From Chiloscyllium plagiosum (taxonomy: Eukaryota), in the NCBI RefSeq assembly GCF_004010195.1, contig NC_057718.1:44107809-44171808 (forward strand): a stretch of 64,000 bases of DNA, written 5' to 3'. Of the stretch, positions 3,217-63,760 are shown piece after piece. The notes beneath the pieces are model-generated. The model made no database searches. It had not been told where the DNA came from and saw only the letters and a program-made list of their open reading frames with translations. Made by a program: the position numbers and the translations under genes. Position 1 is the stretch's first letter. Every line of letters starts with the position of its first letter.

Positions 3217-3411
3217 AACTCTTAGAATTGATTGGATATCCCTAGACGACCAAATGATATCATCCAAGGATATGAAATTAGGAGAAGAACATCGCATCAA
3301 TGTCTCATGTCATGAATTCAAAAGGCAGATCAAAACAGTCAATAGTGTGTTTATATTCAATAAAAAATAAATGAAAGTATCTGTGGTCAGGGATATCCTC
3401 TTATCTGCAAG
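3217..3411 (+). pseudogene. USH2A: Usherin pseudo-exon (about human exon 48)
   Basis: After AG at 3215-16 it reads RTLRIDWIS/PRRPNDIIQGYEIRRRTSHQCLMS*IQKADQNSQ*CVYIQ*KINESICGQ, versus recalled human RSLQIDWVSPRKPNGIILGYDLL...CKAVRCQKPESICGH. Lesions: 1-bp deletion at ~3241; stops TGA 3313, TAG 3343 and TAA 3361; the expected donor reads GGAGT rather than GT. Confidence 0.88.
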
Positions 3412-4180
3412 GGAGTCAAGTACTGAAATATATTAATTGTTTTGCAAATGCCATAAACTTTCTATAAATAGAAGACTGGAGGGAATTGTTTTGATACTTG
3501 AGGCAGAATCTTGAGATTATAATCCCTAGTGGAAAAGCAGGGTCATTTTTGGATCAGGATACCAATTTACTGGTCTGGGCAATACCAATGCTCTTTCCCA
3601 GACTAATACAAGCATCATCTGGTTTCTGGGTTTGCCAAACTCGCCATATTGGATTTTGAATGGATTTTTTTCCTGTTCTCTGAGAACAGCAGGAGGCGGC
3701 CTGCCAACACCACCAACATTTTTGTGCACAACTCTCCTCTGACCATCAAATCTTGGTGTCCTCTCCAACTTGCTTCTTAAATATCCATTTCATCAGATAA
3801 CAATCATGCACATCTCTTGCTCTATTGACCTTTTGCGCCCTTTTGCTCACAGTTACTTCCTACAAATATTGACCCTTTATCTTCAGCAATAATTTGACCT
3901 CTCACTAACTGTTTAAATTTTCTGATTGTAGGAGATTGTCCACCTCTCCAAGGGAGAAATTGAGTACTGTTGGTGCACCCATGGAAATCGTGATGTGGAG
4001 GTTCCATTGTTGGATGGGGATGGACAAGGTCAGAAGTTGCACGAGACCAAGTTATAATCCAACAGGTTTATTTTCGGAACGTTGTTCTTTTGTCAGGTGA
4101 AGTGTGGCCACCATTGAGAAGGAAACCCTGGAGATAACATCGTGTAGCAGCTCAGGCTGTTGTTGATGGGGAGACGAGTG

Positions 4181-4236
4181 ATCCATAGGCTTGATGACAG
4201 CATTCAATATCCATAGGCTTGATGACAGCATTCAAT
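4181..4236. repeat. 28-bp tandem duplication
   Basis: atccataggcttgatgacagcattcaat occurs twice back to back. Confidence 0.9.
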
Positions 4237-5084
4237 AGCACTTGGCACTTAAATTGTGCCTTTGTTAAATCAGTGTCACCGTACATTAGATGTCATGATC
4301 TGCATTATACTAATTTTGAATCCAATTTCACCTGCCTCATGACTGACTTGTGCCTCCCAGAATTCCAGTGACAGAGAAGATATGGGAGGAGTCTAGGAAG
4401 TCCCCTCACGAGTCCCAGTACTGTGATTCCTGCACAACCTCCATTAGCACAGATACATACACCTTGTGAGTCTAACACCAACAAAAGAAAAAGTGGCATA
4501 CAATAAAAAGCACATTATACATGAGCAAGTGTGGGCAATGGGCACAGAGGCAGCAGTGGAGAGTTCTTGTTTTAGGGCACAGGATGGTTTAAGCTCTGCT
4601 CAGCTGAATATGGTCATTAAGCCTTGGGGCCATACACTGATGTGATACCTGTGGAGTGGCGACAAAAGCTGTGTCAGCATTTCTGAAAAAAATGTGTACC
4701 CTTCACCATTAAATAGAGGAGTCCATTTATAGCACAAGTGTCTTGGTGTCTCAAACATTTGCATTGACGATCACCTCCACAGAATGAGTGCCCAATCTCA
4801 TGGACAATTAGATGCACAGGGCACAAGTACACAGTAGTCCACATCAATTGTCTGGCTGCCAGTTTACGTAAGATTAATCAAAATATGGTGGGTGAATGGC
4901 CTGCTGCCATGCAATTGAGTGCTCTCACATTCTTGGCTGAGAGGGAAGCCCAGCTGAGCCCTGAGAAGGAAGACAGAGAAAGATCTCATCATGCTAGTGG
5001 CTGTCCTTAGGCACTCAAACCTTTCAGCTCTATTCTTCCCTTCCTCCTGACAAAGCCGTGTGAGATGTTTCCAATCTAATGAGT

Positions 5085-5373
5085 ATGATGGTTAGTACAG
5101 TAGCCTCATAGCGCCAGGGACGCAGGTTCAATTCCAGCCTTGGGCGACTCTCTGTGTGGAGCTTGCACATTCTCCCTGTGTCTGCATGGGTTTCCTCCTC
5201 CAGTCCAAAGATGCGCAGATCAGGTGAATTGGCCATGCTAAATTGCCCATTGTATTAGGTGTATTAGTCAGAAGGAAACGGGTCTGGGTGGGTTACTCTT
5301 TGGAGGGCCTATGTGGAATTGTTGGGCCGAAGGGCCTGTTTCTACACTGTAGGGAATTTAATCTAATCTAAAA
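5085..5373 (+). mobile_element. tRNA-derived SINE (HE1-like)
   Basis: tRNA-like head (tggttag...ggttcaattcc), core ttgcacattctccctgtgtctgc, tail gggcctgtttctacactgtagggaat(ctaat)n. Confidence 0.85.
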
Positions 5374-6149
5374 CCCCAATGACAGAGTCAGACCTGCACA
5401 GATGTAAATGGGATAGTCTTTGACAGGGCTCTCATAGGCTTCAGAGCTCAGATGGTCTTTGCCACTGCCATTTTGTGGCTCAACAAAGGATTAAAACTCT
5501 GCCGTTAGTGTATTTCATGTAGCACCATTTGCCAATCAGAAGAGTCATTGAACTCAATAACTCCACTTTATGTCCACAGGTGTTGCCAGACCTGCTGACT
5601 TTCTCCAGTACCTGCTGTTTTGTTTTAGCCCGACTTTGATTGTTAGCAAATATTGCGAGGCTTGCTTTAGAGCAAATCATATGACCCTCCCCCCCCTTTT
5701 TTTCTTTAATTTAAAGACTGCCTCAAAAAATAATAATCTTGTAAATCATATAATTTTAAAGTCACCATCATCTGAACAGACCATAGGAAAGTTCCCTGAT
5801 TAGAGAGGGACAACTGGTTGTGGGGGTTACCACAATTCAGGCGGGTGGAGTGGTAAAGGAGGAGAATCCATTATGGTAACCTCAGCCAGTGCAGGAATTA
5901 AATCCACATTGTTGGCATCATTCTGGATCTCAAACTAGTCTTCCAGCCAAGTGAGCTAAACCAACCCCCACATAATTATAACAGTGCATCATAGAAATAG
6001 AAATCTCTAAGAGGGAAATCTATCCCTGAAGACACATCATGATACTCCCCATTTTGCTGATCTTCTTCCAATGATGTAGTATGATCTTCACTTTCTTCTT
6101 GCCTCTTATGACAGATCTAGTCCTCTATAATCCTGGACATTCTTGTTGG

Positions 6150-6790
6150 ATCATATTGAAGGGCATCACCAGATATGACCATGCAGCAGAACCTTTTCTT
6201 AAGTAATCCAATTATTTGGCATTTGGGCTTCAAGGGATGTCTTTTGGCCCCAAGAAGCCAAGTATGGAAGTGATCTGGAGGAAGGAAAACCTGCTGTATA
6301 TGGAACGGCCAAAAGATAAACAACTAGAGAAGCTCTCTGGATATCCAAGGACAGACTTGCATTATGGTCCTCTGATGAGAGCACAAGCCAGTTGCACGTT
6401 AAAGGGAATGGAAGTCATTCCTATGAACCAAAGCACCTGGCTGATACAATGTTGCCTTAATTACCATGTGAGTTCAGTTTCTGACCCCCTGGAGATGTGG
6501 ATAGCTGATAACTGAAGCAACCCCAAAAGCTCTCTGGATTTGACTGGAAGCAACTATAGTTGAGTTCTCTAATGCAAAGCAATCCTGTCGTGAGATGGAG
6601 ATTGTGAGATCCAACAGATGTCACCCACCAATGACACAAAACACACAGATGAAGATGATTTGAGAGTTACGCTCACCTTGACAGCCATGGGCAACACATG
6701 AGAGCCACTGATCTTGTTGGAGGCTTGCTTCCACAAGGTTGTAAATGCCTGCAATGGCCTGCTGCAAGAACCTCAGCCTTCTGAAACCCT
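6150..6790 (-). mobile_element. Decayed PIF/Harbinger transposase remnant
   Basis: Frameshifted minus-strand motifs in order: LPMAVKV, FHSL/NVQLAC, GYPES, WLLGAKRHPLKP. These resemble the HARBI1-type motifs LPVAVKV, FHSLNVQLVC, RYPGS and WLLGDKGYPL. Confidence 0.6.
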
Positions 6791-9483
6791 ACTTGTGAAT
6801 GAAAAGAACACAATGGCCATTTCAAGCATCGCTTTCAATGCCCGTACATAAGTATTTGCCAACACAATGAGAAGCTTACATCAAATACAGGATGTTCACG
6901 CACACAAACCCTAGAAAGTCCAGTGAGTAGCCACAAACTTCAAATCGTTTCCATGAGGTAACATCTTCTAAATATTACCAACATGCCTTTTTGAACAGGT
7001 TGTTCAGCCACCTTAAAATTCACTGTGCACATTCACGGCAAGTTGGGGTCACATTTCACCCCTTTTCAATTTCAGCCGACTGCCCAATCTTTCAGCAGGG
7101 GAGGATGGGGGCTGGAGAAACAGGATGGGGTTACAGGGCTAAAATTTCACCTTGCTTGGATGATTTCTTCCCTGAAGATGTTGTATGTTAAAAGATGTGG
7201 CTTCTGTTCAGCTTTTTGACAAAAAAGACTTATTTTACTGAAAAATAAATCACTTTGAAAGTAAAATGCAAGACAGAATCCACAATGAAAGTATATTGTG
7301 TGTTTTTGAATTATTGAGCAGTATTCTAAAATGACTTTACTTAAACTAAGATGCTGGAGAAACTGAGGGAGGACTATGTTTGAGAAGCAGCTACAGCTCA
7401 CCGACTAAGTCCCAAAATACTGATTTATAATCAATTCTGTGTGCAGCTTAAATATTTTATTTATTTCACAGGAATGCCAATAGTAAATATCTCTTTGTTT
7501 CAACAAAGGCTTTCCAAATATATGCTATTTTCTGATTGCTGCAAGAAAGTAATAGATTGTTTACATTTATGTTAAAAGGATTTCTCCTTTAAATCTTTTC
7601 ATCAACACAAGATTGAGCATTCATTAAAAATAGCTTCAGAGACAAATCTATGATTGTACTTGTATCATTCTTGGTAGTGAGTGTAGTGCTACGAAACACG
7701 GGTATGAGGGCTGCATTGCAGATATTCTGATAGCAGCAGCAGCAGAGTAAACTAAGAAACTTGAGATGGAATTTGAATCGGACCACACATTGACATTCAG
7801 ACTTCCTGTGGAGGATGAGTTATGCCAGGGAGAGTAGAAAAGTGATTGCGCAAAAACCAAAATGTTGATGAATTATGCCTTAACAAACGAATAATACCAC
7901 TGATATTTTCTTTGGAGACAAAGCAAGTTAGATTACTTGAACTAAGGAAGATAATGTTTCTATTGAAGGTTGGGGGATAATAGACATAAACAAATGGAAG
8001 ACACTAAAATTGTAACAAAGCTTATTCTACAGTATTAATCATCAGAATTAATGGGAAAATGATGTATATACCAAATTTATGTTTTTAATGCTTCTGAACT
8101 GAATTTAAGTCTTATTTTTTCTTTTGTACAGAACTGAACAATACGCTTTCACAGATCCCAGCCACCATTTTGCTTATATGGATATTCTTTATGTATGAGA
8201 CTAGGCTGTGAATGTCAGTGGTGTTATTGTGACAAGAGGAATGTGCTGATAATCATTCCCCACTACTCACACCATTAGTACAAATATTTTAACTTAATCA
8301 CCAAAATGGCCAATTGTTTCCCTTTTGCTATCCAGATTTTTAAACAAAATTCACCAAGTTCCTTTAATAAACTCAAGGCTAATCCTTTTATCATATGACA
8401 ACACTCCTAAACACAAGAGGCAAAACCGGAGAAAAGAAATTGTAACTTGGAATAAGACCTAATCCTCTTTTGATCCCAAAACAAATATGATCACTTAATA
8501 TAAAGGACAGCAAAGACTCTACAGGGATGATATTCTGAAAGAATAGAAAGAAATAAAACACCCTTATTAGCTAATGACTGTGTAACAAACATTAGAATAT
8601 GATGAATTTTGTCAGTTCACTGGGTATCTTCTGGACAAAATGGAATGGCTGACAGCCGTAAACTGATGAAAGATCTTCCAAGCATGCCCAATAGATGGAA
8701 ATCAGGCTGATTCCAACTCTTTGGGAAGCGATCACAGTTCAGTTTCTCAGGGTTGACAGGGTGTCAAAATATTGAGATGTGGAAACTTTATCAGGTTCCC
8801 AATAACATTAATTTCCTTCCATTTCCATTGCTCCCTCTGTCTCCTTGATTGAACCCCTCTTTGCTGATCAGTCACAGTTCCCTCTCTTCCAATCATTCCT
8901 CTATCTATCGAACTGTCTCTGTCTCTCCCTCTCTTGCAGAACTGGAAAAGAAATACAGCAACTCAAAATGTACATCCACTTCACTGGTGAGCAACTTGGA
9001 GACAGTGTGTCTACAACTCACCAACCAAATTTAATCAGGCCCAAGTTTCAAACAGGTCTTGGCATTTTGTTCTCATCCTGTCGGGCAGCAATGTCCAAAT
9101 TCATTCCTATTGACTTTAATTTGATCACTGTCTATGATACGTGAGTTTTTCTTTAGTAGCCTCATCACGTACCATTAATGTTTTCTGTGAACTGCATACA
9201 GTTCAACAGGGTTTTTGATGTGGCAAAATTAAAAAGCTATTGTAGTGGTCTGCTTTTGTTGAAAAACATACATGTGTAAGTGTAGATGGAGTCATTTATC
9301 ATAATTAACAATGCAAAGGTTAGTTTGTTGAGCAGCTTTGAACCATTTCAAACTCTTTCTTGATTCACTGAGTCCCAACTTTATAGTTGAGCAGCTTCAT
9401 TACCACTGAAGTTTTACTCAGTTGTTACAGTGGGAAAACTGATTATGTGTTTTGCATGAAATGCTCCATAATATTCTTAATAG

Positions 9484-9652
9484 GTTTGCTGTGATGGAGT
9501 GCTGTACAGCAGTCTGCCAGGCTATGCTTGCTGTGAAGACAGATACATTGTGTCAAGTTTGAATTCCTTCGTAGTTTGTTGTGGTGGGTTTCTCCACACT
9601 TTACAATCTGGATTTCACTGCTCTGGGACTTACTACATCAGAGCTCTGCCAG
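9484..9652 (+). pseudogene. USH2A: Usherin exon (about human exon 49), reading frame open
   Basis: AG 9482-83 and GT 9653-54 flank a 169-bp exon, the same length I recall for the human exon. It encodes VCCDGVLYSSLPGYACCEDRYIVSSLNSFVVCCGGFLHTLQSGFHCSGTYYIRALPG, versus human VCCNGVLYNPKPGHRCCEEKYIPFVLNSTGVCCGGRIQEAQPNHQCCSGYYARILPG. Confidence 0.93.
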
Positions 9653-10388
9653 GTAGGCAAGACTAATTTTTTGTGAGCTCTGTTGTTTGATTATGCACTG
9701 ACATTCAGTATTTGACATTTTTAGTATGATTAAATGACTTGTGCTCATTTACTCCTCAAATGAATCTCACGATCTTAAGTGTATCATGCACTAGAGACAT
9801 ACGTACTGGGAGTAAAAGAAAACTGACCTCTGTATAGTGATAGTATTCTACAAAGCTAAACTCTGTCAATATATGTCATCACAAATCATATCCATGTTAA
9901 AATCTAGTTTGCAAAATTACCCATGTGTTTCCAGTCGTCCAGAGCTATTAAAGATCTTTGAATAGAAAAGAATAGAATATCCTTTATTGTCATGTATACC
10001 CCAGTACAAAAGTACAGGAGTACAGTGAAAAGTATTTATAGAGGCTGCCTTTGATCACACCATCTTAGCTACAAATACCTAGGTATAAATTTAGATACAC
10101 AAGAGGATTAAAAGGAAAAGTAGTAGCATTACTTATAGTGTGTAGAAATTAAGTTAAAGATATGATAGTTGTAACAGAGTTAAAGGTTTACATTACAGTC
10201 CAGTAAAGAATTTCAGATCGCAGCAGCTCAGCATATGATCTGACCACAAGCACCAGGCACAAGCCCAACAACTGCCCCGCTGCTTTCCAGCCTCCAGATC
10301 CCTCCTCACTGGCACTCAGCTGGCACTCAGCTGCAACTAGGTAAGGCACATGGTACCAGGACTCATTTCACTTCGCACTGCACCAGAT

Positions 10389-13300
10389 CTCGGGTATTCC
10401 CCCTCACCCCGCTCCAATACTCGGATAATCCCCCCTCACAACGCCGCAATACTCCGGTATTAACCCCTCACCCCGCTCCAATACTCCGGTATTCCCCTTC
10501 ACACTGCTCCGATACTCGGGTATTCCCCCTACTCGGGTTTCCCCCTCACATCGCTCCGATACTCGGGTATTCCCCCTACTCGGGTTTCCCCCTCACATCG
10601 CTCCGATTCTTGGGTATTCCCCCTCACCCCACTCCAGTACTCAGGTATTCTCCCTCACATCGCTCCGATACTCGGGTATTCCCCCTCACATCGCTCCAAT
10701 ATTCGGGTATTCCCCCTCACACCGCTTCACTACGCGGGTTACCCCTCACATCGCTCCAGTACTCAGGTATTCCACCTCACATCGCTTCAATACTCGGGTT
10801 TCCCCCTCACTCCGCTCCAATACTCGGTATTCCCCCTCACACCACTCCAATACTCGGGTATTCCCCCTCACATCGCATCAATACTCGGGTCTCCCCCTCA
10901 CTCCGCTCCAATACTCGGGTATTCCCCCTCACACCGCTCCAATACTCGGTATTCCCCCTCACACCACTCCAATACTCGGGTCTCCCCCTCACTCCGCTCC
11001 AATACTCGGGTATTCCCCCTCACGTCGCTCCATTACTCCGGTTTCCCCCTCACACTGTCCCAAAACTCGGGTATTCTTACTCGCATCGCTCCAATACTCG
11101 GGTATTTCTCCTCAGCCTGCTCCAATACTCGGGTATTCCCCCTCAGCCCGCTCCAATACTCGGGTTACCCCTCACATCGCACCAATACTTGGGTATTCCC
11201 CCGCACATTGCTCCAGTACTCAGGTATTCCCCCTCACATTGCTTCAATACTCGGGTTTCCCCCCATACCCTCCAACACTCGGGTTTCCCCCTCAAACCAC
11301 CCCAATACTCAGGTTTCCCCCTCACACTGCCCCAAAACTCGGGTATTCTCACTCGCATCGCTCCAATACTCGGGTTTTCTCCCTCACATTGCACCGATAC
11401 TCAGGTTTCCCCCTCCCACTGCTCCAATACTCGGTATTCTCCCTCACATCGCTCCAATACTCAGGTATTCCCCCTCACATCGCACCAATACTTGGGTGTT
11501 TCCCCCCCAACCCGCTCCAATACTCGGGTATTCCCCCGCATACCGCTCCAATACTCGGGCATTCTCCCTCACATCGCTCCAATAAACGGGTTTCCCCCTC
11601 ATACCAATCCAATACTCGAGTCTCCCCCTCACTCCACTCCAATACGCGGGTTTCCCCCTCACTCCATTCCAATACTCGGGAATTCCCCCTCACTCCGCTC
11701 CAATACTCGGGTATTCCCCCTCACATCGCTCCAATATTCGGGTATTCCCCCTCACTCTGCTCCAATGCTCGGGTATTCCCCCTCAGTCCACTCCAATACT
11801 CGGTATTCTTCCTCACATCACTTCAATACTCGGGTTTACCCCTCACATCGCACCAATACTCGGGTATTCCCCCTCACACTGCTCCAATAGTCGGGTATTC
11901 CCCCTCAAACCGCCCCAATACTCAGGTTTCCCCCTCACACTGCCCCAACACTCATGTATTCTCACTCACATCGCTCCAATACATGGGTTTCCCCCTCACA
12001 CCACTCCAATGCTCAGGTATTCCCCCTCACACCACTCCAATACTCAGGTTTCCCCCTCACACCGCTCCAATACTCAGGTATTCCCCATCAGTCTGCTCCA
12101 ATACTCGGGTATTCCCCCTCACACCGCTTCAATACTTGGGTAACCCCCTCACACCGCTCCAATACTCGGGTCTCCCTCTCACACCGCTCCAATACTCGGG
12201 TTTCCCACTCACATCGCACCAATACTCGGGTTTCCCACTCACATCGCTTCAAAACTCGGGTATTCCCCATCAGTCCGCTCCAATACTCGGGTATTCCCCC
12301 TCACACCGCTTCAATACTTGGGTAACCCCCTCACACCGCTCCAATACTTGGGTCTCCCTCTCACACCGCTCCAATACTCGGGTTTACTCCTACCACTGCT
12401 CCAATACTCAGGTTTCCCCTTCACACTGCCCCAATACTCGGGTATTCTCCCTCACAATGCTCCAATACACAGGTCTCCCCCTCACACCACTCCAATATGC
12501 GGGTTTCCCCCTCACACTGCTCCAATACTCGGGTTTTCCCCTCACACCGCTTCAATACTCAGGTATTTCCCCTCAGCCCGCTCCAATACTCAGGTATTCC
12601 CCCTCACATCGCACCAATACTCGGGTATTCCCCATCAGTCCGCTCCAATACTCGGGTATTCCCCCTCACACCGGAGCAATACTAAGCTTTCCCCCTCACA
12701 CCGCTCCAGTACTCCGGATTCCCCCTCACATCACTCCAATACATGGGTTTCCCCCTCATACCCCTCCAATACACGGGTTTGCCCCATATACTGCCCCAAA
12801 AATCGGGTATTCTCAGTCGCATCACTCCAATACTCGGGTATTCTCCCCCACATTGCTCCAGTACTCGGGTTTCCCCCTCACATCGCTCCAATACTCGGGT
12901 TTCCCCTCACACCGCTTCAATACTCGGGTTTTCCCCTCACAACGCTCCAGTACTCAAGTTTCCCCCTCACATCGCTTCAATACTCAGATATTTCCCCTCA
13001 GCCCACTCCAATACTCAGGTATTCCCCCTCACATTGCACCAATACTCAGGTATTCCCCATCAGTCCGCTCCAATACTCGGGTATTCCCCCTCACACCGCT
13101 TCAATACTCGGGTAACCCCCTCACACCGCTCCAATACTCGGGTTTCCCCCTCACCCCGCTCCAATACGCGGGTATTCCCCCTCACACTGCTCCAATACTC
13201 GGGTTTCCCTCTCACATCGCTTCAATACTCAGGTATTCCCCCTCAGCCCGTTCCAATACTCAGGTATTCCCCCTCATATCGCACCAATGCTCGGGTATTC

Positions 13301-16300
13301 CCCATCCGTCCGCTCAATACTCGGGTATTCCCACTCACACCGCTTCAATACTCAGGTAATCCCATCATGTCGCTTCAATACTCGGGCTTTCCTCTCACAC
13401 CGCTCCAATACTCGGGTATTCCCCCTCACATTGCTCCAATACTCAGGTTTCCCCCTCACACTGCTGCAATACTTGGGTATTCTCCCTCACATCGCTCCAA
13501 TATTCGGGTTTCCCCCTCACACTGCTCCATACTCGGGTATTCCCCCTCACATCGCTCCAATACCCGGGTCTCCCCCTCCCACTGCTCCAATACTTGGGTT
13601 TCCCCCTCACACCGCCCCAATACTCAGGTTTCCCCCTCACACTGCCCCAATATTCGGGTATTCCCCCTCAGCCCGCTCCAATACTCGGGTATTCCCCCTC
13701 ACACCACTCCAATACTCGGGTATTCCCCCTCACACCGCTCCGATACTCGGGAATTCCCCCTCACACCACTCCAATACGCGGGTTTCCCCCTCACACCGCT
13801 CCAATAATCGGGTTTCGCCCTCACACCGCTCCGATACTCAGTTATTCCCCTCACAATGCTCCAATACGTGGGTTTCCCCCTCAGACCGCTCCAATACTTG
13901 GGTTACCCCCTTACACCACTCCAAGACTTCGTTATTCCCCTCACAATGCTCCAATACACAGGTTTCCCCCTCACACCACCCCGATACTCGGGTTTCGCCC
14001 TCACGCGGCTCCGATACTCGATTATTCTCATCACACCGCTCCAATATTCAGTATTCCCCCTCACACCGCTCTAATACTCAGTATTCCCCCTCACACGGCT
14101 CCAATACTCAGTATTCCCCCTCACACCGCAGCAATACTAAGCTTTCCCCCTCACACCGCACCAGTACTCCGGATTCCCCCTCACATCGCTCCAATATTCG
14201 GGTTTCCCCCTCATACCCCTCCAATACATGGGGTTCCCCCTCGAACCGCCCCAATACTCAGGTTTGCCCCTTATACTGCCCCAAAAATCGGGTATTCTCA
14301 GTCGCAACACTCCATTACTCGGGTATTCTCCCCCACATTGCTCCAGTACTCGGGTTTCCCCCTCACATCGCTCCAATACTCGGGTTTCCCCTCACATCGC
14401 ACCAATACTTGGGTTTCCCCCTCACATCGCTCCAATACTCGGGTTTCCCCCTCACATCGCACCGATACTCAGGTTTCCCCCTCCCACTGCTCCAATACTC
14501 GGTATTCCCCCTCCCACCGCTCCAATACTCGGGTATTCCCTCTCACACCGCTTCAATACTCGGGATTCCCCCTCACATCGCATCATACTTGGGTATTCCC
14601 ACTCAGCCCGCTCCAATATTTGGGGATGCCCCCTCACACATCTTCAATACTCGGGTTACCCCCTCACATCGCACCAAAACTCGGGTGTTCCCCCTCAGCC
14701 CGCACCAAAACTCGGGTATTCCCCCTCACACCAATCTAATACTCGGGTATTCCCCCTCACTCCGCTCCAATATTTGGGTTACCCCCTTACAGCGCTCCAA
14801 GACTTGGTTATTCCCCTCACAATGCTCCAGTACTCAGGTTTCCCCCCTTACACCACCCCGATACCCAGGTTTCGCCCTCACACCGCTCCAATACTCGGTT
14901 ATTCCCATCACACCGCTCAAATACTCAGTATCCCCCCTCACACCGCTCCAATACTCAGTTTTCCCCCTCACACTGCTCCAATACTCAGTATTCCCCCTCA
15001 CACTGCTCCAATACTCGGTTATTCCCATCACACCGCTCCAATACTCAGTATCCCCTCTCACACTGCTCCAATACTCAGTATTCCGCCTCACACCGCTCCA
15101 ATACTCGGTTATTCCCATCACACCGCTCCAATACTCAGTATCCCCCCTCACACCGCTCCAATACTCAGTTTTCCCCCTCACACCGCTCCAATACTCAGTA
15201 TCCCCTCTCACACTGCTCCAATACTCAGTATTCCGCCTCACACCGCTCCAATACTCGGTTATTCCCATTACACCGCTCCAATACTCAGTATCCCCCCTCA
15301 CACCGCTCCAATACTCAGTTTTCCCCCTCACACTGCTCCAATACTCAGTATCCCCTCTCACACTGCTCCAATACTCAGTTTTCCCCCTCACACTGCTCCA
15401 ATACTCAGTATCCCCTCTCACACTGCTCCAATACTCGGGTATTCCCCCTCACTCCGCTCCAATATTTGGGTTTCCCCCTCACATCGCTTCTATACTTGGT
15501 CATTCACCTCACAATGCTCCAATACGCGTGTTTCCCCCCTTCACACCACTCCAATATGCGGGTTTCCCCGTCACACCGCTCCAATAATCCGGTTTCGCCC
15601 TCACACCACTCCGATACTCAGTTATTCCCCTCACAATGCTCCAATACGTGGGTTTCCCCTTTAGATCACTCCAATACTTGGGTTACCCCCTTACACCACT
15701 CCAAGATTTAGTTATTCCCCTCACAATGCTCCAATACTCAGGTTTCCCCCCTCACACCACCCCGATACTCGGGTTTCACCCTCACACCGCTCCGATATTC
15801 GGTTATTCCCATCACACCGCTCCAATACTCAGTGTCCCCCCTCACACCGCTCCAATACTCAGTATTCCCCTTCACACTGCTCCAATACTCAGTATTCCCC
15901 CTCACACTTCAGCAATACTCAGGTTTCCCCCTCACATCGTTCCAATACTCGGTATTCCCCCTCACACCGCTACAATACTCGGGTTTCCCCCTTACCCCGC
16001 TCCAATACACGGGTATTCCCCCACAAACCGCTCCAGTACTCTGTTATTCCCCTCACAATGCTCCAATACACGGGTTTGCCCCTCACATCGCACCAATACT
16101 CGTGTATTCACCCTCAACCCGCTCCAACACTCGGGTATTCCCCCTCACATCGCTTCAATACTCGGGTAACCCCCTCACACCGCTCCAGTATTCGGGTTTC
16201 CCACTCACACCGCTCCAATACTCGGGTATTCCCCCTCACATCGCTCCAATACACGGGTTTCCCCCTCATACCACTCCAATACTCAGGTTTCCCCCTCACA

Positions 16301-19300
16301 TCACACCGATACTCAGGTTACACCCACCCACTGCTCCAATACTCGGTATTCTCCCTCACATTACTCCAATATTCGGATTTCCCCCTCACATCGCTCCAAT
16401 ACTCCGTATTCCCCCTCACACCGCTCCAATACTTGGGTTACCCCCTCACATCGCACCAATACTCGGGTATCCCCCCTCAGCCCGCTCCAATACTCGGGTT
16501 TCCCCCTCACATCGCTCCAATACTCGGGTTTCCCCCTCACACTGTCCCAAAACTCGGGTATTCTCACTCGCATCGCTCCAATACTCGGGTATTCTCCCTC
16601 ACACCGCCCCAATACTCAGGTTTCCCCCTCACACTGTCCCAAAACTTGGGTATTCTCCCTCACATCGCTCCAATATTCGGGTTTCCCCCCATACCCTCCA
16701 ACAATCGGGTTTCCCCCTCAAACCACCCCAATACTCAGGTTTCCCCCTCACACTGTCCCAAAACTCAGGTATTCTCACTTGCATCGCTCCAATACTCGGG
16801 TATTCTCCCTCACATTGCACCAATACTCAGGTTTCCCCCTCCCACTGCTCCAATACTCGGTATTCTCCCTCACATCACTCCAATAGTCGGGTTTCCCCCT
16901 CACATCGCTCCAATACTCCGGTTTCCCCCTCCCACTGCTCCAATGCTCGGGTATTCCCCCTCACACCGCTCCAATACTCGGGTATTCCCCCTCACACCGC
17001 TTCAATACCTGGGTTTCCCCCTCACATCGCACCAATACTTGGGTGTTTCCCCCCCAGCCCACTCCAATACTCGGGTATTCCGCTCCAATACTCGGGCATT
17101 CTCCCTCACATCGCTCCAATACACGGGTTTCCCCCTCATACCAATCCAATACTCGAGTTTCCCCCTCACTCCGCTCCATACGTGGGTTTTCCCCTCACAT
17201 CACTCCAATACTCGCGTATTCCCCCTCACACCGCTTCAATATTCGGGTTTCCCCCTCACACTGCTCCAATACTCGGGTTTCCCCCTCACATCGCTTCAAT
17301 ACTCGAGTTTCCCCCTCACATCGCACCAATACTTGGGTATTCACCCTCAGCCCGCTCCAACACTCGGGTATTCCCCCTCACATCGCTTCAATACTCAGGT
17401 TTCCCCCTCACCCCGCTCCAGTACTCGGGATTCCCACTCACACCGCTCCAATACTCGGGTTTCCCCCTCACACTGCTCCAGTACTCGGGTATTCCCCCTC
17501 ACATCGCTTCAATACTCAGGTTTCCCCCTCACCCCACTCCATTACTCGGGTTTCCCCCTCACAGCGCTCCAATACTCGGGTATTCCCCCTCCCATCGATC
17601 CAATACTCAGGTTTCCCCCTCACCCCACTCCATTACTCGGGTTTCCCCCTCACAGCGCTCCAATACTCGGGTATTCCCCCTCCCATCGATCCAATACTCA
17701 GGTTTCCCCCTCACCCCACTCCATTACTCGGGTTTCCCCCTCACAGCGCTCCAATACTCGGGTATTCCCCCTCCCATCGATCCAATCGGTATTCCCCCAC
17801 CCACAGCTCCAATACTTGATATTCCCCCTCACACCACTCCAATACTTGGGTATTCCCTCTCACACCGCTTCAATACTCGGGTTTCCCCCTCACATTGCTC
17901 CAATACTCGGGTTTCCCCCTCACATTGCACCGATACTCAGGTTTCCCCTTCCCACTGCTCCAATACTCGGTATTCCCCCTCACACCACTCCAATACTCGG
18001 GTATTCCCTCTCACACAGCTTCAATACTTGGGTTTCCCCCTCACATCGCATCAATACTCAGGTATTCCCACTCAGCCCGCTCCAATATTCGGGTATTCCC
18101 CCTCATGCTGCTTCAATACTCTGGTTACCCCTTCACATCGCACCAATACTCGGGTGTTCCCCCTCATACCGCTCCAACACTCCGGTATTCCCCCTCACTC
18201 CACTCCAATATTCGGGTTTCCCCCTCACACCGCTTCTATACTTGGTTATTCACCTCACAATGCTCCAATACGCGTGTTTCCCGCCCTCATTCAGCTCCAA
18301 TATGCGGGTTTCCCCCTCACACCGCTCCAATAATCGGGTATTCCCCCTCACACCGCTCCAATACTCTGTTCTTCCCCTCACAATGCTGCAATACTCGGGG
18401 TTCTTCCTCACATCGCACCAATACTTGGATATTCACCCTCAGCCCGCTCCAATACTCGGGTTTCCCCCTCACATCGCACCAATACTTGGGTATTCACCCT
18501 CAGCCCGCTCCAACACTCGGGTATTCCCCCTCACATCGCTTCAATACTCGGGTTTCCCCCTCACCCCACTCCAGTACTCGGGTTTCCCACTCACACCGCT
18601 CCAATACTCGGGTTTCCCCCTCACACTGCTCCAGTACTCGGGTTTCCCACTCACACCGCTCCAACACTCGGGTATTCCCCCTCCCATCGATCCAATACTC
18701 AGGTTTCCCCCTCACCCCACTCCAATACTCGTGTTTCCCCCTCACCCCGCTCCAATACTCAGGTTTCCCCCTCACATCGCTCCAGCACTCGGGTTTCCAC
18801 CTCACATCGATCCAATACTCGGGTTTCCCTACCACACCGCTCCAATATTCGAGTTTTCCCCCTCACACCGCTTCTATACTTGGTTATTCACCTCACAATA
18901 CTCCAATACGTGTGTTCCCCCCCTCACACCACTCCAATATGCGGGTTTCCCCCTCACACCGCTCCAATAATCGGGTTTCATCCTCACACCGCTCCGATAC
19001 TCAGTTATTCCCCTCACAATGCTCCAATACGTGAGTTTCCCCCTCAGACCACTCCAATACTTGGGTTACCCCCTTACACCACTCCAAGACTTAGTTATTC
19101 CCCTCACATTGCTCCGATACTCAGGTTTCCCCCTCCCACTGCTCCAATACTCGGTATTTCCCCTCACACCGCTCTAATACTCAGGAATTCCCTCTCACAC
19201 CGCTTCAATACTCAGGTATTCCCACTCATCCCGCTCCAATACTCGGGTATTGCCCCTCACACTGCTTCAATACTCGGGTTACCCCCTCACTTCGCACCAA

Positions 19301-21640: not shown

Positions 21641-22216
21641 CCCAGGATTGTTGAGAGAAAAATTAGAAGAGGTAGAAAAAGAACAGGTGGAGCAGAGGAG
21701 CGCCAGCTGAAGCATCCTACTCTGCTGCTATCTTTGGCCAAGTGAATAATCCTCTCTGACAAAACAAATGGCACAATGAGGCAGCTGAATTAGTTTTACG
21801 TTTTTATATTACATTGTTGTGCTTATTTGATGTTTGGAAGGATGAGACATTAATAGCATGAAAATGTTTTATGTTTCTTCTCAAGAGGCTAATAAACTTG
21901 AATTTCAGCCAATGGAAGTTTAATATTCAGTGACTGTTCTTCATACTTAACTCAGCATTTTGAATTTGAGATTGTAAAATTAGATTCAACTTTCCCCTCT
22001 CAAAACCTCCACACAAAATAGTGTGATCAGAAACTGTTTTTCTTAATTTCTGAACTTATGCTTTTTTTTCTACTAAGAACATTCTCAATGTAAGATTATC
22101 AATAACATTTGCCATTTGAATTTGATGTCAGGTAAAATTCCTTGAGAAATATATCATGTGATACGATAGCTCTAAGAATATTTGCACGATTTTATAACAC
22201 TCTTCCAGTGTCGTAG

Positions 22217-22413
22217 GGGTTACTGCATGAATATGCAACAAAATCAAACTTCCATTTGAATTGGAGATTTGTGTTACAGGAGATAACTACACTTTAAAGG
22301 AGGTGACCAGATCTGTAGTGGAAGTTCCCTTCATGATGACTTTAATCAACAGTGTTTTGGCAAGCAACTAGTTCACACAGATCTTTTGTGCTGCAGCATT
22401 GAAGAGAAAGGGA

Positions 22414-22416: not shown

Positions 22417-22451
<35 letters not shown>
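22417..22451. repeat. (TG)n microsatellite
   Basis: Perfect TG run at the 3' tail of the adjacent LINE. Confidence 0.95.
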
Positions 22452-24511
<2,060 letters not shown>

Positions 24512-43120: not shown

Positions 43121-43328
43121 AGCTGGGCTGTTATGGGCAGGACCTGGTGAATATATTGATTACCCTTTGTTGTATTGGACCTAATGGGTCAAGGAAATCC
43201 GTATCATTGCTGAAGCCCAAGTCAGATGGCGTGGTACTGAAGTTATATCCAGCAATGAGCAATGTTGTGTTCGGGTTGATTATAATCCCTCAGAGCAGGT
43301 CTGTGTTGACAGATCATCAGATAAAAAG
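43121..43328 (+). pseudogene. USH2A: Usherin pseudo-exon (about human exon 51)
   Basis: AG 43119-20 and GT 43329-30. Reads LGCYGQDLVNILITLCCIGPNG / frameshift ~43189 / KEIRIIAEAQVRWRGTEVISSNEQCCVRVDYNPSEQVCVDRSSDKK, versus human MFCCGQDYVNMSDTICCSASSG...PVKCCETELIPKSQKCCNGVGYNPLKYVCSDK. The 208-bp length does not preserve phase. Confidence 0.88.
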
Positions 43329-50844: not shown

Positions 50845-51039
50845 AAAACTCTGACATAAGTACTGAATATTCACTATTTTAAAGATCCACAGTATGTTGC
50901 AAGAGCTATAATTTCAGATCCAGTACTTATATTTGTGTGGTCAGAAACTCCTACTGTTGTGAATAAAGAATTGAGGGAAAAGCTTTGCTTTTTGTCAGAA
51001 AAGATTATATACACAGGAGGTTCCAGCAGAGATTTATAG
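50845..51039 (+). pseudogene. USH2A: Usherin pseudo-exon (about human exon 52)
   Basis: Reads (E)NSDISTEYSLF*RSTVCCKSYNFRSSTYICV / frameshift ~50938 / WSETPTVVNKELREKLCFLSEKIIYTGGSSR, versus human ETKECRILCPASMEATEHCGRCDFNFTSHICTV...EEMCSSAEETIHTGSVNT. AG 50843-44, GT 51040-41, stop TAA 50880. Confidence 0.72.
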
Positions 51040-52146: not shown

Positions 52147-52185
52147 ATCATCTGATGAAGGAGCGACACTCTGAAAGCTAGTGTG
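52147..52185 (+). ncRNA. Minimal hammerhead ribozyme motif (slightly decayed)
   Basis: cat-CTGATGA-aggagcgacactct-GAAA-gcta-gtg. Confidence 0.62.
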
Positions 52186-56078: not shown

Positions 56079-56101
56079 CACAAATAACCAGTTCCATTTA
56101 T
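56079..56101 (+). pseudogene. USH2A: Possible 5' piece of usherin pseudo-exon (about human exon 53)
   Basis: After tgcag it reads T N x P V P F I, loosely resembling VNLKPYM, immediately before the hairpin/provirus insertion. Short and weak. Confidence 0.3.
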
Positions 56102-56134
56102 CTGCTGGAGAAGCTCAGCAGATCAAGAAGGATG

Positions 56135-56909
56135 TGTCATATTCAAGTGACCATGGGCCCGTTTGGATATTCTAAATGGACCCACAGTTGGAGAAATCAG
56201 ACATGACAGAAAATTGGACAAATTAACCAGCAGCTATCAGCTACAAAGAACAATGGAAATCAAAATCAAAAATGTTATGGAGGTTCATCGGGAAACAATT
56301 ACAATAAACCCGAGGGTTGTGTATTGGAGAAGCATTGATTAGACATTCTGATATCTTTGCTGCCTGAGAATGTGCACTTTGTACCTCGTGGCATAGCAAT
56401 AGTGAAGGGTATTGGCAGGACCCCATTGGATGATTTGACCCCAGCTCATCACCCCATTGACCAAAGGCCACAGAACATTTCAGAAGGTCAGGGGTGAACA
56501 GGAATAAGAACGCACAACTTGATGTCACCCCCTCAGTGAAGGCTTACAGCAGAAGGCCACGCAGAAACCGAAGAAGACCCAGGATAAGATCCTCCCTGAT
56601 CTGTGAGACCCACCTTCATGGAAGAGAGCCATCCCTACATCAGAGAGGGAAAGAGACTTCAACAGCTCAGCTCAAGGATCATGGCAGGTAAAAGCCTCTC
56701 CTCAGCCTGATAATGCTAGATAAAGATTAAATATTGTGGGAATTTGGAAAATACTCCCATAGTGTTTTTACAAAGGAATATTTTGTTCGTAAAATCAAGT
56801 TGAATTGCAAACCAAAGTTTCAGTCTTTTTGTCCACCTCACCAACAACAGCACTTGGGTAAAGTGTTATTAATACATAAACTGGTCAAAGTGTCCAAAGC
56901 ACAGATACA
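56135..56909 (+). mobile_element. 5' LTR of decayed provirus
   Basis: Starts TG and ends ...gataCA. It is colinear with 61314-61400 plus 62761-63497 (shared blocks such as cccgagggttgtgtattggagaa, gacccagc.cat..cccattg, gatgtcac.ccctcagtg, taaatattgtgg). Confidence 0.82.
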
Positions 56910-57149
56910 ATGTTATCTCTGGATGATCTTCAACTAGAAGTGTCTGTATAACCTCCAAAGTCGAACAAACACCACCCACCTTTCTATCTGACCTCTCAGA
57001 CATCCAGCCTGAGCCCAAAAGAAGAGGGTAAATGCCTATATGATGGCCAGGATTCAAAAGGTTGAAAGAGGATGAAGGTTTCTGACCAGTGATTTGATCA
57101 TTAACCAAGTGCTTGTAATGTGAGGGGGAAAACACAGTTAGAGTTTGTA

Positions 57150-60770: not shown

Positions 60771-61400
60771 CAGCCTGTTTACTTTGATCTACCTCACTGT
60801 CCTCCGTTGGAAGAAGAAACTCAATGAGAAACTAACCACGGACTCTATGCTATTATAGTGGGAACCAAGCACTTAATGAACACACACTGCATCATGAAAG
60901 GATGATGCCAATTGTTCAGTGGTATGAATTTTACTCTATTGAGAGCTGCTAATCACCTAAGAGGCTTAAGGGCTATCAAGTGAATGGAATTAGTAACTAA
61001 TTCTTAACTTCTATATTATTTGTATATAGCACTGTTAAGCTTGTTTATGTGCATATGGAAGATAGTTAATGTCTGGGATACAGCTGTCTATGTGCAATGG
61101 GGAATCTAGATAGTGAGGGACAAAAACAGGAATTGCAGTAAAAGCTCAGCAGGTCTGGTAGCATCTGTAAAAAGAAATCAGAGTTTTGGGTCCAGTTACC
61201 CTTTCTCAGAAGTGAGGGAGTTAGGCTAGCTGCCTGAGTCTTGACAAGTGCCTGCACAAGAGTATGATCAGAGTCTGTGATCTCATTTTTGCTTGACACT
61301 TCAAGGGATCAACTGTGGTCAAATGACCATAGGCCCAAAATTGGACATTCTAAATCAACCCACAGATGGAGAAATTGAGCTTGACAGAAAACTGGCCAAA

Positions 61401-62760
61401 AGGTGTGCCGCTGGAAAAGTACAGCAGGTCAGGCGGCATCTGAAGAGCAGGAGAGTCGACATTTTTGGCATAAGCCGTTCATCAAGAATGTTGGGATGGG
61501 CAACCAAAGGGCTTGAGAGATAAATGGGAAGGGGGATGGGGCTGGGGGAAGGTAGCTTGGAAGGCAATAAGTAGATGAAGGTGTGGGGTGATTAGATTAG
61601 ATTCCCTACAGTGTGGAAACAGACCCTTTGGCCCGACAAGTTAATACTGATCCTCCGAAGAGTAACCCCCCCCCAGACCCATTCCCCTACCCTACAGTTA
61701 CCCCTGATTAATACACTTAACACCAGGGGCAATTTAGCATGGCCAATTTACCTGATCTGCACATCTTTGGACTGTGGGAGGAAACCAGAGCACCCAAAGA
61801 AAATCCACGCAGACACAAGGAGAACGTGCAAACTCCACACAAACAGGTGCCCGAGGCTGGAATTGAATCTGGGACCCTGGTGCTGTGAGGCTGCAGCGCT
61901 AACCACTGACCCTCTGTGCCAATGATAGGTTGGAGTGCAGGGTGGAGTGGATAGGTGGGAAGGAAGATGGATAGGGAGGACAGCTCAAGAATGCGGTGCC
62001 GAGTTAGAAGGTTGGATCTGGGATGAGGTGGGGGGAGGGGAGATGAGGAAACTGGTGAAGTCAACATTGATGCCGTGTGGTTAGAGGGTCCCAAGGAAGG
62101 AGATGAGGCGTTCCTCCTCCAAGTGTTGGGTGGCTTGAATTTGGCAGTGAAGGAGGCCTCCTCTATATTGGGGAGACAGGATATCAACTTGTGGAATGGT
62201 TCAGGGAACATCTCTGGGACCCACACACACCCAACAATCCCAATGCCATGTGACCGAGCATTTCAATTCCCCCTCCCACTCCACCAAGGACATGCAAGTC
62301 CTGGGCCTCCTCCACCGCCAAATCCAAGCCACCCGATACCTGGACGAAGAACGCCTCATCTTCTACCTAGGGATCCTCCAACCACATGGGATCAATGTTG
62401 ATTTCATCAGTTTCCTCATCTCCCCTCCCCCCACCTTATCCTGGATCCAACCATCCAACTTAGCATCACCTTCTTGAACTATCCCACCTGTCTATCTTCC
62501 TTCCCGTCTATCTGCTCCACCTTCAGCTCTGACCTATCACCATCATCCCCCACCTTCATCAACTTATTGCCTTCTAAGGTACCTTCCTCTCAGCCCCACA
62601 CCCCTCCCATTTATCTTTCAACCCTTTGGACTGCCCCCTACCCTCCCCATGCCCAAAACATTGACTCTCCTGCTCCTCAGATGCTGCCTGACCTACTGTG
62701 CTTTTCCAGTGCCACACTTTTTGACTCTGTTCTCCAGCATCTGCAGTCCTCAATTTCTCC
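61401..62760. mobile_element. Penelope-like element with inverted structure (minus part 61401-62158, plus part 62159-62760)
   Basis: The plus part encodes GLLYIGETGYQLVEWFREHL...EHFNSPSHS...LDEERLIFYLGILQPHGINVDF (GIY-YIG). The upstream part is its reverse complement. Confidence 0.85.
61593..61921 (-). mobile_element. HE1-like SINE nested in the Penelope element
   Basis: Reverse complement of the SINE family at 28044-28380, with an (attag)n tail at ~61591-61603. Confidence 0.9.
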
Positions 62761-63624
62761 GACAAAATTGGCCAAACTAATTTAAACAGCAAGATCATAG
62801 AGGTTATAAAACTTCAGGGGAATCAGTTACAACCAGCCCGAGGGTTGTGTATTGGAGAACTTTTGATCAGACTTCCAGGCATCTTGCCTTCCAGCCAATG
62901 CCTGAGACCATGCACTTTACACCTCCTCAGAATGGCAACAGTGACTGGTGTTGGTGCGACCCCATTGGATAACTTGAACCCAGCCCATGATCCCATTGGT
63001 CAAAGACCAGAGAACATTCCCGAATGTCAGGAGTAAGGGGGTCTAAGAGCACACACCTGGATGTCACTCCCTCAGTGCAAACCCAACCTGACCCAGCAAT
63101 GGAGCTCCAACCATCTGGAGGGAGAGAGAGGCAGAGAGACAGAGACACAGAGACAGAGAGGGAAAGAGAGAATATCCATTCTGACCTGCAAGTGGCACCT
63201 TCATAGGAGACAGCCAGCCCTACATTGGAGAGGAAGGAGATTCCAACAGCCCAGCTAAAACGCATGAGTCATTGTAGGTAAAATCTTTCACAGATTGATT
63301 GAGCTAGACAAAGAATAAATATTGTGGTAATTTGGGAAAGGCTCACAAAGTGTTTTTAATAAGGAATATTTCATTAATAAAATCGAGTTGACCTGCAAAC
63401 AAATTTTGTGTTCCCTTGTCTACCTCATTGACAAAACTGCATGGGTAAATTATTTTTAATACATAAACAGGTCAAACTGTCAAGACCACAGACAATAATG
63501 TGAAAACAGAAGCAGAATGAACAGAGTTCCAAGAAGACTCACACTTGACTTGACCCTTTAACTCTTTTTTGCTCAACACAGATGCTGCCAGACCTGCTGA
63601 GTTTCTACAACGTATCCTGATTTT

Positions 63625-63760
63625 GTATCCATTGATTGCATTCACCTATGATAGGACAATACATAACTTGGATAATTCTACAACCAAAACAAAGATATTT
63701 GCAAAATTTAGTCCAGAGAGAGATTACTAGAGTTGAGAATGATGGCCATAATTCTACTTG
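63625..63760 (+). pseudogene. USH2A: Probable 3' piece of usherin pseudo-exon (about human exon 53)
   Basis: With frameshifts it reads YPLIAFTYDRTIHNLDNSTTK/QDILQN.SP../TRVEN, versus human YRISAWNSYGRGLSKAVRARTKEDVPQGVSPPTWTKIDN. Spacing is largely preserved but identity is low. Confidence 0.45.

Follow-up and report, generated by a model that had tools for sequence, protein, structure and literature searches.

The extracellular part of usherin appears to have been lost from the bamboo shark Chiloscyllium plagiosum. Analysis of the genomic DNA indicates that the ectodomain part of USH2A is a unitary pseudogene at a single syntenic locus, and that the tail exons have escaped decay and probably still make a mini-usherin, a reading to which a probability of roughly 0.8 is assigned. 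The new point is that the tail exons (residues 4881–5221) are free of lesions amid the decay of the ectodomain. No prior report of USH2A decay in sharks was found in searches of full-text articles, and the word 'Usher' does not occur in the body text of the paper on the bamboo-shark genome (PMC7677710).

The cysteine-rich segment

The DNA analysed (the window) is a stretch of 64,000 nucleotides, C9:44107809–44171808 (NC_057718.1), from the middle part of the USH2A locus. Alignment of the DNA itself to the usherin of Cetorhinus maximus, using tblastn and a frameshift-aware method, revealed five collinear plus-strand USH2A exons that correspond to residues ~3140–3474. They correspond to the part of usherin in which Cys-rich (galaxin-like) repeats lie between FN3 domains, as had been recognised in a previous reading made from the letters of the window (the sequence-only reading). 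The per-exon E-values of 1e-12 to 1e-22, together with collinearity with 38 more exon groups beyond the window, exclude a chance match. Four of the five exons are broken, with six in-frame stops and three frameshifts in all, and exon B is intact.

Exon remnant A (3206–3423, + strand; Cetorhinus residues 3140–3217) contains the end of an FN3 domain and the start of the Cys-rich segment. The frameshift, three stops and missing donor that had been described for it were all found in the DNA: the frameshift is at 3236, the stops are TGA at 3313–3315, TAG at 3343–3345 and TAA at 3361–3363, and there is no GT at the expected site after 3405. Three of its seven invariant cysteines are lost. Exon B (9484–9652, + strand; residues 3210–3266) encodes dicysteine/galaxin-like repeats in an open frame with a canonical ag acceptor and gt donor, and has 74% identity to Cetorhinus; one CC pair is changed to CS and one of eight invariant cysteines is lost. 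The position of exon B was absent from the previous exon list. In a separate sampling of words from window positions 3000–9900, 64–76% were present in runs from a second study with the same organism label, a value that shows word presence only.

Exon remnant C (22209–22412, + strand; residues ~3267–3340) carries the two stops that had been claimed (TGA at 22257–22259 and TAA at 22284–22286), several CC pairs have lost one of their two cysteines, and 3 of 11 invariant cysteines are gone. At the 3′ end a (GT)n tract (~22417–22452) either replaces or adjoins the exon sequence. The LINE that had been counted among its lesions is located outside the exon, in the downstream intron, as LINE-like retroelement fragments on the minus strand (22916–24500) containing an endonuclease/reverse-transcriptase-type ORF (Exo_endo_phos_2, E 4.3e-5) and a second ORF that matches Pfam ALKBH8_N (PF09004, E 3.7e-8). 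Exon remnant D (43117–43328, + strand; residues 3341–3409) retains both splice sites, and the expected frameshift was located at ~43201, where it splits the exon into two usherin-matching halves in different frames; CC is changed to CY and WR, and three of eight invariant cysteines are lost. Exon remnant E (50859–51027, + strand; residues 3415–3474) has a stop (TAA at 50880–50882), a donor gt at 51039 and a single frameshift at ~50937, where several had been claimed, and has lost two of five invariant cysteines. Over the five exons 12 of the 39 cysteines judged invariant in five intact sharks are gone, consistent with the proposed loss of structural cysteines.

The sequence-only reading had listed six ordered usherin exons, five of them with lesions. 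Order and strand were confirmed for five exons and lesions for four (A, C, D and E). The "exon" at 56/63 kb was rejected, as its apparent fragmentation arises from two copies of a dispersed repeat without usherin similarity (56261–56905 and 62790–63492; best usherin E 0.47), which are 68.5% identical to each other over ~700 bases. An intronic minisatellite of ~360 copies of a 30-bp unit (10389–21323), with a strong skew of C over G, also lies outside the USH2A coding sequence.

The dicysteine repeat pattern of the window exons is shared with galaxin and galaxin-like proteins. In the usherins compared with exons A–E the CC pairs are preserved. The Pfam Galaxin_repeat model (PF24748) was found in the usherin of Elysia (E 4.5e-9) and matched exon B weakly (E 0.0035). 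The scores of 17.7 bits (exon B) and 15 bits, both below the cut-off of 28, and the flanking usherin FN3 exons led to the rejection of a stand-alone galaxin-like gene; the window exons align far better to the usherin Cys-rich segment than to the galaxin model.

The whole gene and its genomic setting

The USH2A locus covers ~960 kb of C9 (~43.43–44.40 Mb). Similarity to residues 188–5192 of Cetorhinus usherin was found as 51 collinear HSPs on one strand, in which the laminin N-terminal, EGF-Lam, LamG and FN3-array parts are all represented. Lesions were counted in 43 exon groups containing 3,224 aligned codons, 62% of the protein. This gave 30 in-frame stops and 31 frameshifts, with at least one lesion in 28 of the 43 groups, and a single uninterrupted frame of ~5,200 codons is absent. 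The lesions extend from residue ~245 to ~4810 through the laminin N-terminal, EGF, FN3 and large-exon parts. The presence of several independent inactivating lesions in still recognisable exons is a feature of unitary pseudogenes.

Intact usherins of cartilaginous fish include those of Cetorhinus maximus (XP_078412490.1, 5,221 aa), Carcharodon, Mustelus asterias, Heterodontus francisci, Scyliorhinus canicula/torazame and Callorhinchus milii. At the 2,343 sites that are invariant in five galeomorph sharks the C. plagiosum sequence is changed at 587 (25%), compared to 1.0–7.6% for single intact sharks in a leave-one-out test, and 36 of 135 invariant cysteines are lost gene-wide. Identity to the intact sharks is 68–70%, compared to 84.5–97% among the intact sharks over 2,991 shared columns. 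The proposal of an old, gene-wide decay rather than sequencing error was upheld by these counts. In a maximum-likelihood tree the sequence is sister to Lamniformes plus Carcharhiniformes, after Heterodontus, with a support of 98/100, which is where carpet sharks (Orectolobiformes) sit; this placement within the galeomorph sharks, and a C. plagiosum RefSeq protein encoded at the locus, agree with the shark genome that had been presumed. The branch length of 0.339 is 4–5 times that of intact sharks, the sister lineages having branches of 0.06–0.09. Unusual conservation is also shown by a few ectodomain exons (4/64, 2/40 and 3/44 invariant sites changed). They are located among broken neighbours at C9:43593358, 43612071 and 44006394, with a further one at 44063689 that itself bears a stop. 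The tail is thus not the only conserved part, and some of this conservation may be non-coding in cause.

Whole-genome protein searches using four usherins, with a stricter first pass that could miss weak matches, gave no second usherin locus; an intact USH2A elsewhere, which would have pointed to a dead duplicate, was not found. Usherin-level identity was found on C9 only, the other matches being generic FN3/EGF similarity of 22–55% identity. The synteny check that had been suggested identified two nuclear-receptor DNA-binding-domain exons (C9:43210224 and 43212606, + strand), on the same strand as USH2A, whose best solved-structure matches were ERR alpha/gamma/beta (E 1e-21 to 1e-22) with other receptors at 7e-16 or weaker. 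The ERR-family gene at C9:43.21 Mb lies upstream of USH2A, ~220 kb before the first exon detected. Such a neighbour is expected if the locus is the USH2A orthologue, as ERRgamma–USH2A synteny is described for the vertebrate orthologous locus (PMC7617844). The assembly is fragmented beyond the chromosomes (101,977 contigs). It keeps a 5,734-aa open frame on C7, a sign of its quality that also speaks against sequencing error as the source of the lesions. ADGRV1-like exons on C2 are clean, and regarding the co-decay of ADGRV1 that was to be checked, this candidate locus shows no decay at the resolution of nine domain matches.

The C-terminal exons

Residues 4881–5221 (349 codons) contain zero lesions, where 7.4 are expected at the rate of the rest of the gene (61 in 2,875 codons; Poisson P ~6e-4). 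Invariant sites are changed at 24/231 in this region compared to 563/2,112 elsewhere (Fisher p = 8.6e-9). No lesion is present in six consecutive exon groups and a 24-aa micro-exon, and their splice sites are canonical; this alternative cytoplasmic exon (C9:44386120–44386191) is 100% identical to the Stegostoma model. The transmembrane/tail exons are at C9:44383822–44384052, 44394366–44394587 and 44395473–44395559, and the 29 residues of the last exon are all the same as in Mustelus, ending in TDTQL, a class I PDZ-binding motif. The final ~195 residues consist of a short outer stub, a transmembrane helix and the tail with this motif. This region has 82–90% identity to other sharks, which is inside the range of intact sharks and indicates no faster evolution, and the carpet-shark tails of the C. 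punctatum and Stegostoma models are 94–98% identical to the tail encoded here.

The natural knockout put forward by the sequence-only reading holds for the decayed ectodomain exons, but not for the last exons, which encode the transmembrane helix and cytoplasmic tail and are intact and conserved. Constraint is not relaxed over the whole gene, as 25–27% of invariant sites are changed in the ectodomain and ~5–10% in the tail; the locus is therefore called a partial pseudogene.

The RefSeq protein 'usherin-like [Chiloscyllium plagiosum]' (356 aa) corresponds exon for exon to this locus, and its start is the first Met after an in-frame TAG at 44371686. The two FN3 exons within this model have 17/116 invariant sites changed, the loss of a conserved Cys and an identity of 80–84%, compared to 86–96% among other sharks. 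The raised level of change and the Cys loss suggest that the 356-aa model may exceed the real product. An internal promoter signal was sought, and the 7.3 kb preceding the stub exon contained no CpG-rich stretch. A start at the conserved Met would give a product with no signal peptide, so that its insertion into the membrane is presumptive.

Annotation lists, as distinct from DNA, contain C-terminal-only models for C. punctatum (195 aa), Stegostoma (219 aa) and Rhincodon (134 aa), and only C-terminal models of 83–222 aa for five rays, among them Hypanus, Hemitrygon, Mobula and Narcine. Among the best 120 of 266 matches, full-length chondrichthyan usherins were those of Cetorhinus/Carcharodon, Mustelus, Heterodontus, Scyliorhinus and Callorhinchus only. 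USH2A is intact in lamprey, chimaera and other sharks. The short models of carpet sharks, rays and a teleost share the arrangement of stub, transmembrane helix and tail ending in TDTQL or TDTNL. The short paralogue of Danio aesculapii (199 aa) has 43% identity to the tail of Danio rerio usherin, indicating that the teleost short protein is a separate gene that coexists with full-length usherin.

Discussion

The bamboo-shark locus resembles the intact usherin genes of cartilaginous fish in its exon and domain order, the dicysteine segment between FN3 domains, the TDTQL end and the ERR-family neighbour, and differs from them in an ectodomain that carries 30 stops and 31 frameshifts within the examined 62% of the protein. 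In the explanation proposed here the extracellular region of ~5,000 residues, comprising the laminin N-terminal, EGF-type, laminin-G, FN3-array and Cys-rich parts, would have decayed to exons that are recognisable and in order. Stops, frameshifts and losses of invariant Cys and Trp in most of these exons mean that no long, or short N-terminal, usherin is possible. Within the USH2 complex the usherin tail binds whirlin/PDZD7-type PDZ partners. The tail exons would still yield a 'mini-usherin' of ~195–220 residues, probably from an internal start, which would retain this scaffold binding without the ectodomain. The loss of the ectodomain would date to the early carpet-shark lineage. The wider proposal that carpet sharks, and possibly rays independently, reduced a 5,200-residue usherin to a mini-usherin of ~200 residues kept by purifying selection is given somewhat better than even odds.

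The tail exons might instead belong to a gene that is dead throughout, having survived by chance or through non-coding conservation such as ESRRG–USH2A regulatory DNA, with the RefSeq models being by-products of ORF finding. Some ectodomain exons are indeed equally conserved beside broken neighbours, the 7.3 kb before the stub exon gave no promoter signal, and the C. plagiosum model begins at the first Met past the last stop. However, six consecutive exon groups and a micro-exon are free of lesions (Poisson P ~6e-4 for no lesion), the tail reading frame and PDZ-binding motif are preserved, and three further carpet sharks also have a conserved tail, whose rate of change is no higher than in sharks that keep the whole gene. 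A wholly dead gene is considered unlikely.

It is much less likely again that the locus is a dead duplicate of an intact USH2A in missing or missed sequence. The fragmentation of the assembly outside the chromosomes and the stricter first pass of the searches leave some room for such a copy, but an intact gene should outscore a pseudogene and usherin-level identity was found on C9 only. The exon order is also complete over the ~960 kb of this locus, which contains the conserved tail exons and has the upstream ERR-family gene, and long usherins are absent for four carpet sharks among the named proteins listed, which include the long usherins of other sharks. A functional gene, in which the Cys-rich segment alone is skipped in frame or the lesions are assembly errors, is scarcely credible. 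The intact exon B and the retained splice sites of exon D would suit it, but lesions also affect the large exons and the exons for the laminin N-terminal, EGF and FN3 domains. Half of the lesions are substitutions to stops and a quarter of invariant residues are changed, unlike assembly errors, and the other long frames, on C7 and C2, are clean. The reading of a decayed ectodomain with a retained tail is preferred.

Unitary pseudogenes of sensory genes are known from regressive evolution, such as those of opsins and crystallins in cavefish and blind moles. As in those cases, a single-copy syntenic gene is decaying in place with many independent stops and frameshifts and without deletion; unlike them, the decay of bamboo-shark USH2A spares a terminal module. 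Carpet sharks are sighted and hearing, unlike blind cave or burrowing animals. For Sinocyclocheilus cavefish, just two amino-acid changes in Ush2a are reported (PMC4698820).

For annotators, the 'usherin' entries of 83–356 aa in several elasmobranchs may be a sign of gene decay and not of an incomplete model. Usher syndrome and recessive retinitis pigmentosa have USH2A among their common causes, and the size of the full gene exceeds the capacity of the usual viral vectors; a function of the tail alone would bear on the design of shortened USH2A constructs. A sighted, hearing vertebrate lineage without the usherin ectodomain would be a natural experiment on the need for this region, bearing on whether ADGRV1 forms ankle and periciliary links without it and on what the usherin tail does alone. 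If the reading is true, the usherin tail has a function independent of the ectodomain, and vertebrate photoreceptors and hair cells can be built without usherin extracellular filaments, presumably with ADGRV1 alone.

Usherin exons within the window

The identity of the cysteine-rich exons was examined by searching protein collections with the open frames of the window. The stop-to-stop frame at 9484-9663 gave a single match in a large protein collection, a partial sea-slug usherin (47% identity, E 5.5e-5), and aligned with the dicysteine repeats of that protein, which correspond to the Pfam family Galaxin_repeat. An exhaustive search from the intact FN3 exon nearby led to full-length usherins, the closest being that of the basking shark Cetorhinus maximus (P0003, 5,221 aa; used here for residue numbering), whose 90% cluster includes the white-shark usherin. 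A partial usherin from the catshark Scyliorhinus torazame (P0023) was also recovered. Alignment of the window with P0003 gave five collinear exons on the + strand, named A to E, covering residues 3140-3474, which comprise the end of an FN3 domain and the cysteine-rich segment. A galaxin-like gene was rejected as the identity of the cysteine-rich exons.

Exon A (3206-3423, +) contains a frameshift at 3236 and the stop codons TGA 3313, TAG 3343 and TAA 3361, and lacks GT at the expected donor. Exon B (9484-9652, +) is undamaged; both its splice sites are canonical, and it is 74% identical to Cetorhinus. Exon C (22209-22412, +) is interrupted by TGA 22257 and TAA 22284 and has a (GT)n tract at its 3' end. 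Exon D (43117-43328, +) has kept both splice sites and is broken by a frameshift at 43201, its two halves matching usherin in different frames. Exon E (50859-51027, +) is disrupted by a stop, TAA 50880, and by a frameshift at 50937. Of the 39 cysteines that do not vary among five intact sharks, 12 are missing from the five exons; the CC pairs are kept in all four comparators aligned over these exons (4/4). The sequence-only reading had proposed six usherin exons, five of them damaged. Five exons, four of them with lesions, were recovered; the sixth, placed at 56/63 kb, proved to be two copies of a dispersed repeat with 68.5% mutual identity over ~700 bases and had no usherin match (best E 0.47). 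The LINE assigned to exon C was likewise not borne out, as the LINE-like fragments begin ~500 bases downstream of the exon and lie outside it.

The window as a whole (C9:44107809-44171808, + strand) is AT-rich and contains many retroelement fragments. The intron separating exons B and C holds an 11 kb minisatellite (10389-21323; 30-bp unit, ~360 copies, 77% matches). It has a very large excess of C over G (GC skew as low as -0.55) and generates artefactual long open frames in several reading frames. Two runs of N mark assembly gaps, one at 26819-27095 within a reverse-transcriptase fragment and the other at 36801-37266, flanked by a 125-aa open frame without a Pfam match.

A single USH2A locus

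The assembly (3.56 Gb in 101,977 contigs) was searched as a whole with four usherin queries from mollusc, catshark, tarpon and amphioxus, P0023, P0008 and P0065 among them. Usherin-level matches were found on contig C9 only, collinear over 43.53-44.39 Mb, and every other match was to a generic FN3 or EGF domain; no intact USH2A that would make the locus a dead duplicate was found elsewhere in these searches. Two nuclear-receptor DNA-binding-domain exons, at C9:43210224 and 43212606, precede the first USH2A match by ~220 kb on the same strand. When compared with solved structures these exons gave ERR alpha, gamma and beta as the best matches (E 1e-21 to 1e-22), with other receptors at 7e-16 or weaker. 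An ERR-type neighbor agrees with the ERRgamma-USH2A synteny reported in PMC7617844 and argues against the USH2A locus being a stray duplicate.

Decay and divergence of the ectodomain

The extent of the damage was determined from 200 kb at the 5' end of the locus and short stretches around the remaining usherin matches. The aligned share amounts to ~62% of the coding length, the part left out being mainly residues 1295-2234. When plain tblastn matches were chained, 51 collinear HSPs covered 3,028 residues, with 39 stops and 9 frame changes. Frameshift-aware alignment of 3,224 codons in 43 exon groups gave 30 in-frame stops and 31 frameshifts, with at least one lesion in 28 of the 43 groups and a stop density of ~1 per 100 codons. 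The lesions extend from the laminin N-terminal domain, which has three stops at C9:43531751-43531951, to residue ~4810 (TAG 44371686). The base accuracy of the assembly was controlled using a 5,734-aa open frame on contig C7. This uninterrupted, FN3-rich frame (C7:43017919-43063089) probably represents a single giant exon encoding a protein of muscle or matrix type. In sequencing runs of a second study carrying the same organism label, 64-76% of the words sampled from window positions 3000-9900 were present, which supports the presence of the stretch and not of each individual lesion; for the related organisms B and C the fractions were 0.29-0.44 and ~0.2. No RNA run was among those listed for this interval.

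Constraint was gauged from amino-acid change at invariant sites and from branch length. Over 2,991 shared columns, five intact galeomorph sharks have mutual identities of 84.5-97%; identity of the C. plagiosum sequence to each of the five is 68-70%, and to the chimaera 59%. It differs at 587 of the 2,343 sites (25%) that are invariant in the five sharks, and leaving out each intact shark in turn gave 1.0-7.6% changed. Of 135 invariant cysteines, 36 have been lost. A maximum-likelihood tree (JTT+G4, 1,000 ultrafast bootstraps) placed the C. plagiosum sequence as sister to Lamniformes plus Carcharhiniformes, after Heterodontus, with support of 98 and 100, a position that the accepted shark phylogeny gives to the carpet sharks (Orectolobiformes). 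The branch leading to it measures 0.339 substitutions/site, compared to 0.06-0.09 when the sister lineages are measured from the shared node, suggesting that constraint on USH2A was lost during most of that branch. Both this and the density of stops point to an old loss.

As assembled, the ectodomain exons cannot encode usherin, and the pseudogene proposed from the window is supported and widened to the whole ectodomain. The locus would belong to a known kind, the lineage-specific unitary pseudogene, which is here partial. A full-text search of the literature, restricted to main texts, gave no account of USH2A decay in sharks.

Five ectodomain exons are far better conserved than their broken neighbors, with 83-94% identity to Cetorhinus (C9:43593358-43593552, 43612071-43612229, 43904839-43905006, 44006394-44006549 and 44063689-44063814). 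Each has 2-4 changes per 37-64 invariant sites, against the 25% average, and a stop is still present in one of them. Non-coding function, uneven mutation or chance are possible causes.

A retained C-terminal tail

What is added here to the sequence-only reading is a retained and conserved tail module. Neither stops nor frameshifts are present in the six C-terminal exon groups (residues 4881-5221, 349 codons), where 7.4 lesions would be expected from their frequency across the remainder of the gene (61 per 2,875 codons; Poisson P of zero ~6e-4). Changes at invariant sites are also fewer, at 24/231 in these groups versus 563/2,112 elsewhere (Fisher p = 8.6e-9). The final exon is identical to that of Mustelus usherin at 29/29 residues and terminates in TDTQL, the PDZ-binding motif. 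A 24-residue alternative cytoplasmic exon (C9:44386120-44386191) matches the zebra-shark model at every residue and is bounded by canonical splice sites. Between the conserved pre-membrane methionine and the C-terminus (195 residues), identity to intact-gene sharks is 82-90%, and these sharks have 81-97% mutual identity over that stretch. On this genomic evidence the tail exons are intact and conserved. The two FN3 exons directly upstream (residues 4881-5016) are open but have 17 of 116 invariant sites changed and one conserved cysteine lost, with 80-84% identity compared to 86-96% among other sharks, and may also be decaying. No CpG-rich, promoter-like stretch that would mark an internal CpG-island promoter was seen in the 7.3 kb upstream of the stub exon.

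Short usherin entries in other species

A search for short proteins with an usherin C-terminus returned a 356-aa entry, 'usherin-like [Chiloscyllium plagiosum]', which is encoded at the C9 locus with every exon matching and begins at the first methionine past the last in-frame stop. Other carpet sharks had short C-terminal entries only (C. punctatum 195 aa, Stegostoma tigrinum 219 aa, Rhincodon typus 134 aa), and the same was found for five rays of two orders (Hypanus, Hemitrygon, two Mobula and Narcine; P0324, P0326, P0397-P0399), with entries of 83-222 aa. Among the best 120 of 266 full-length matches, long usherins of cartilaginous fishes came only from Cetorhinus (clustered with Carcharodon), Mustelus, Heterodontus, Scyliorhinus and Callorhinchus; rays were not represented. 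For a sawshark the entry is a partial model of 1,201 aa, in which the FN3 domains are intact. The annotation fits an ectodomain loss common to carpet sharks, and hints at a second, independent loss in rays (batoids).

The short-protein list also contained the caecilians Rhinatrema and Geotrypetes, with only 222-250-aa C-terminal 'usherin' entries (P0335, P0338, P0342). Many teleosts have an 'usherin' of ~200 aa in which a stub and a transmembrane helix are followed by a tail with TDTNL at its end (P0373 and P0221 were compared). The short Danio protein (199 aa) shares only 43% identity with the tail of full-length zebrafish usherin, indicating a separate short paralogue and not an isoform. A stand-alone gene with the stub, helix and tail build therefore exists outside sharks.

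Implications for the USH2 complex

Sharing of the decay with a partner gene was examined for ADGRV1. Eight Calx-beta matches and one EPTP match, the architecture of ADGRV1, lie on one strand of contig C2 at 47.48-47.75 Mb; eight of the nine have no internal stop, and the ninth has a TAA that is perhaps in the flank. At this coarse resolution the decay of USH2A is not shared by ADGRV1.

In mammals the C-terminus of usherin binds the PDZ scaffolds of the USH2 complex. We infer that expression of the C. plagiosum tail exons continues, probably with an internal start. The predicted product is a small membrane protein with an outer stub of ~40 residues, one helix and the tail; the tail would bind these scaffolds. 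Extracellular links to which usherin normally contributes would then be made without it, or be absent.
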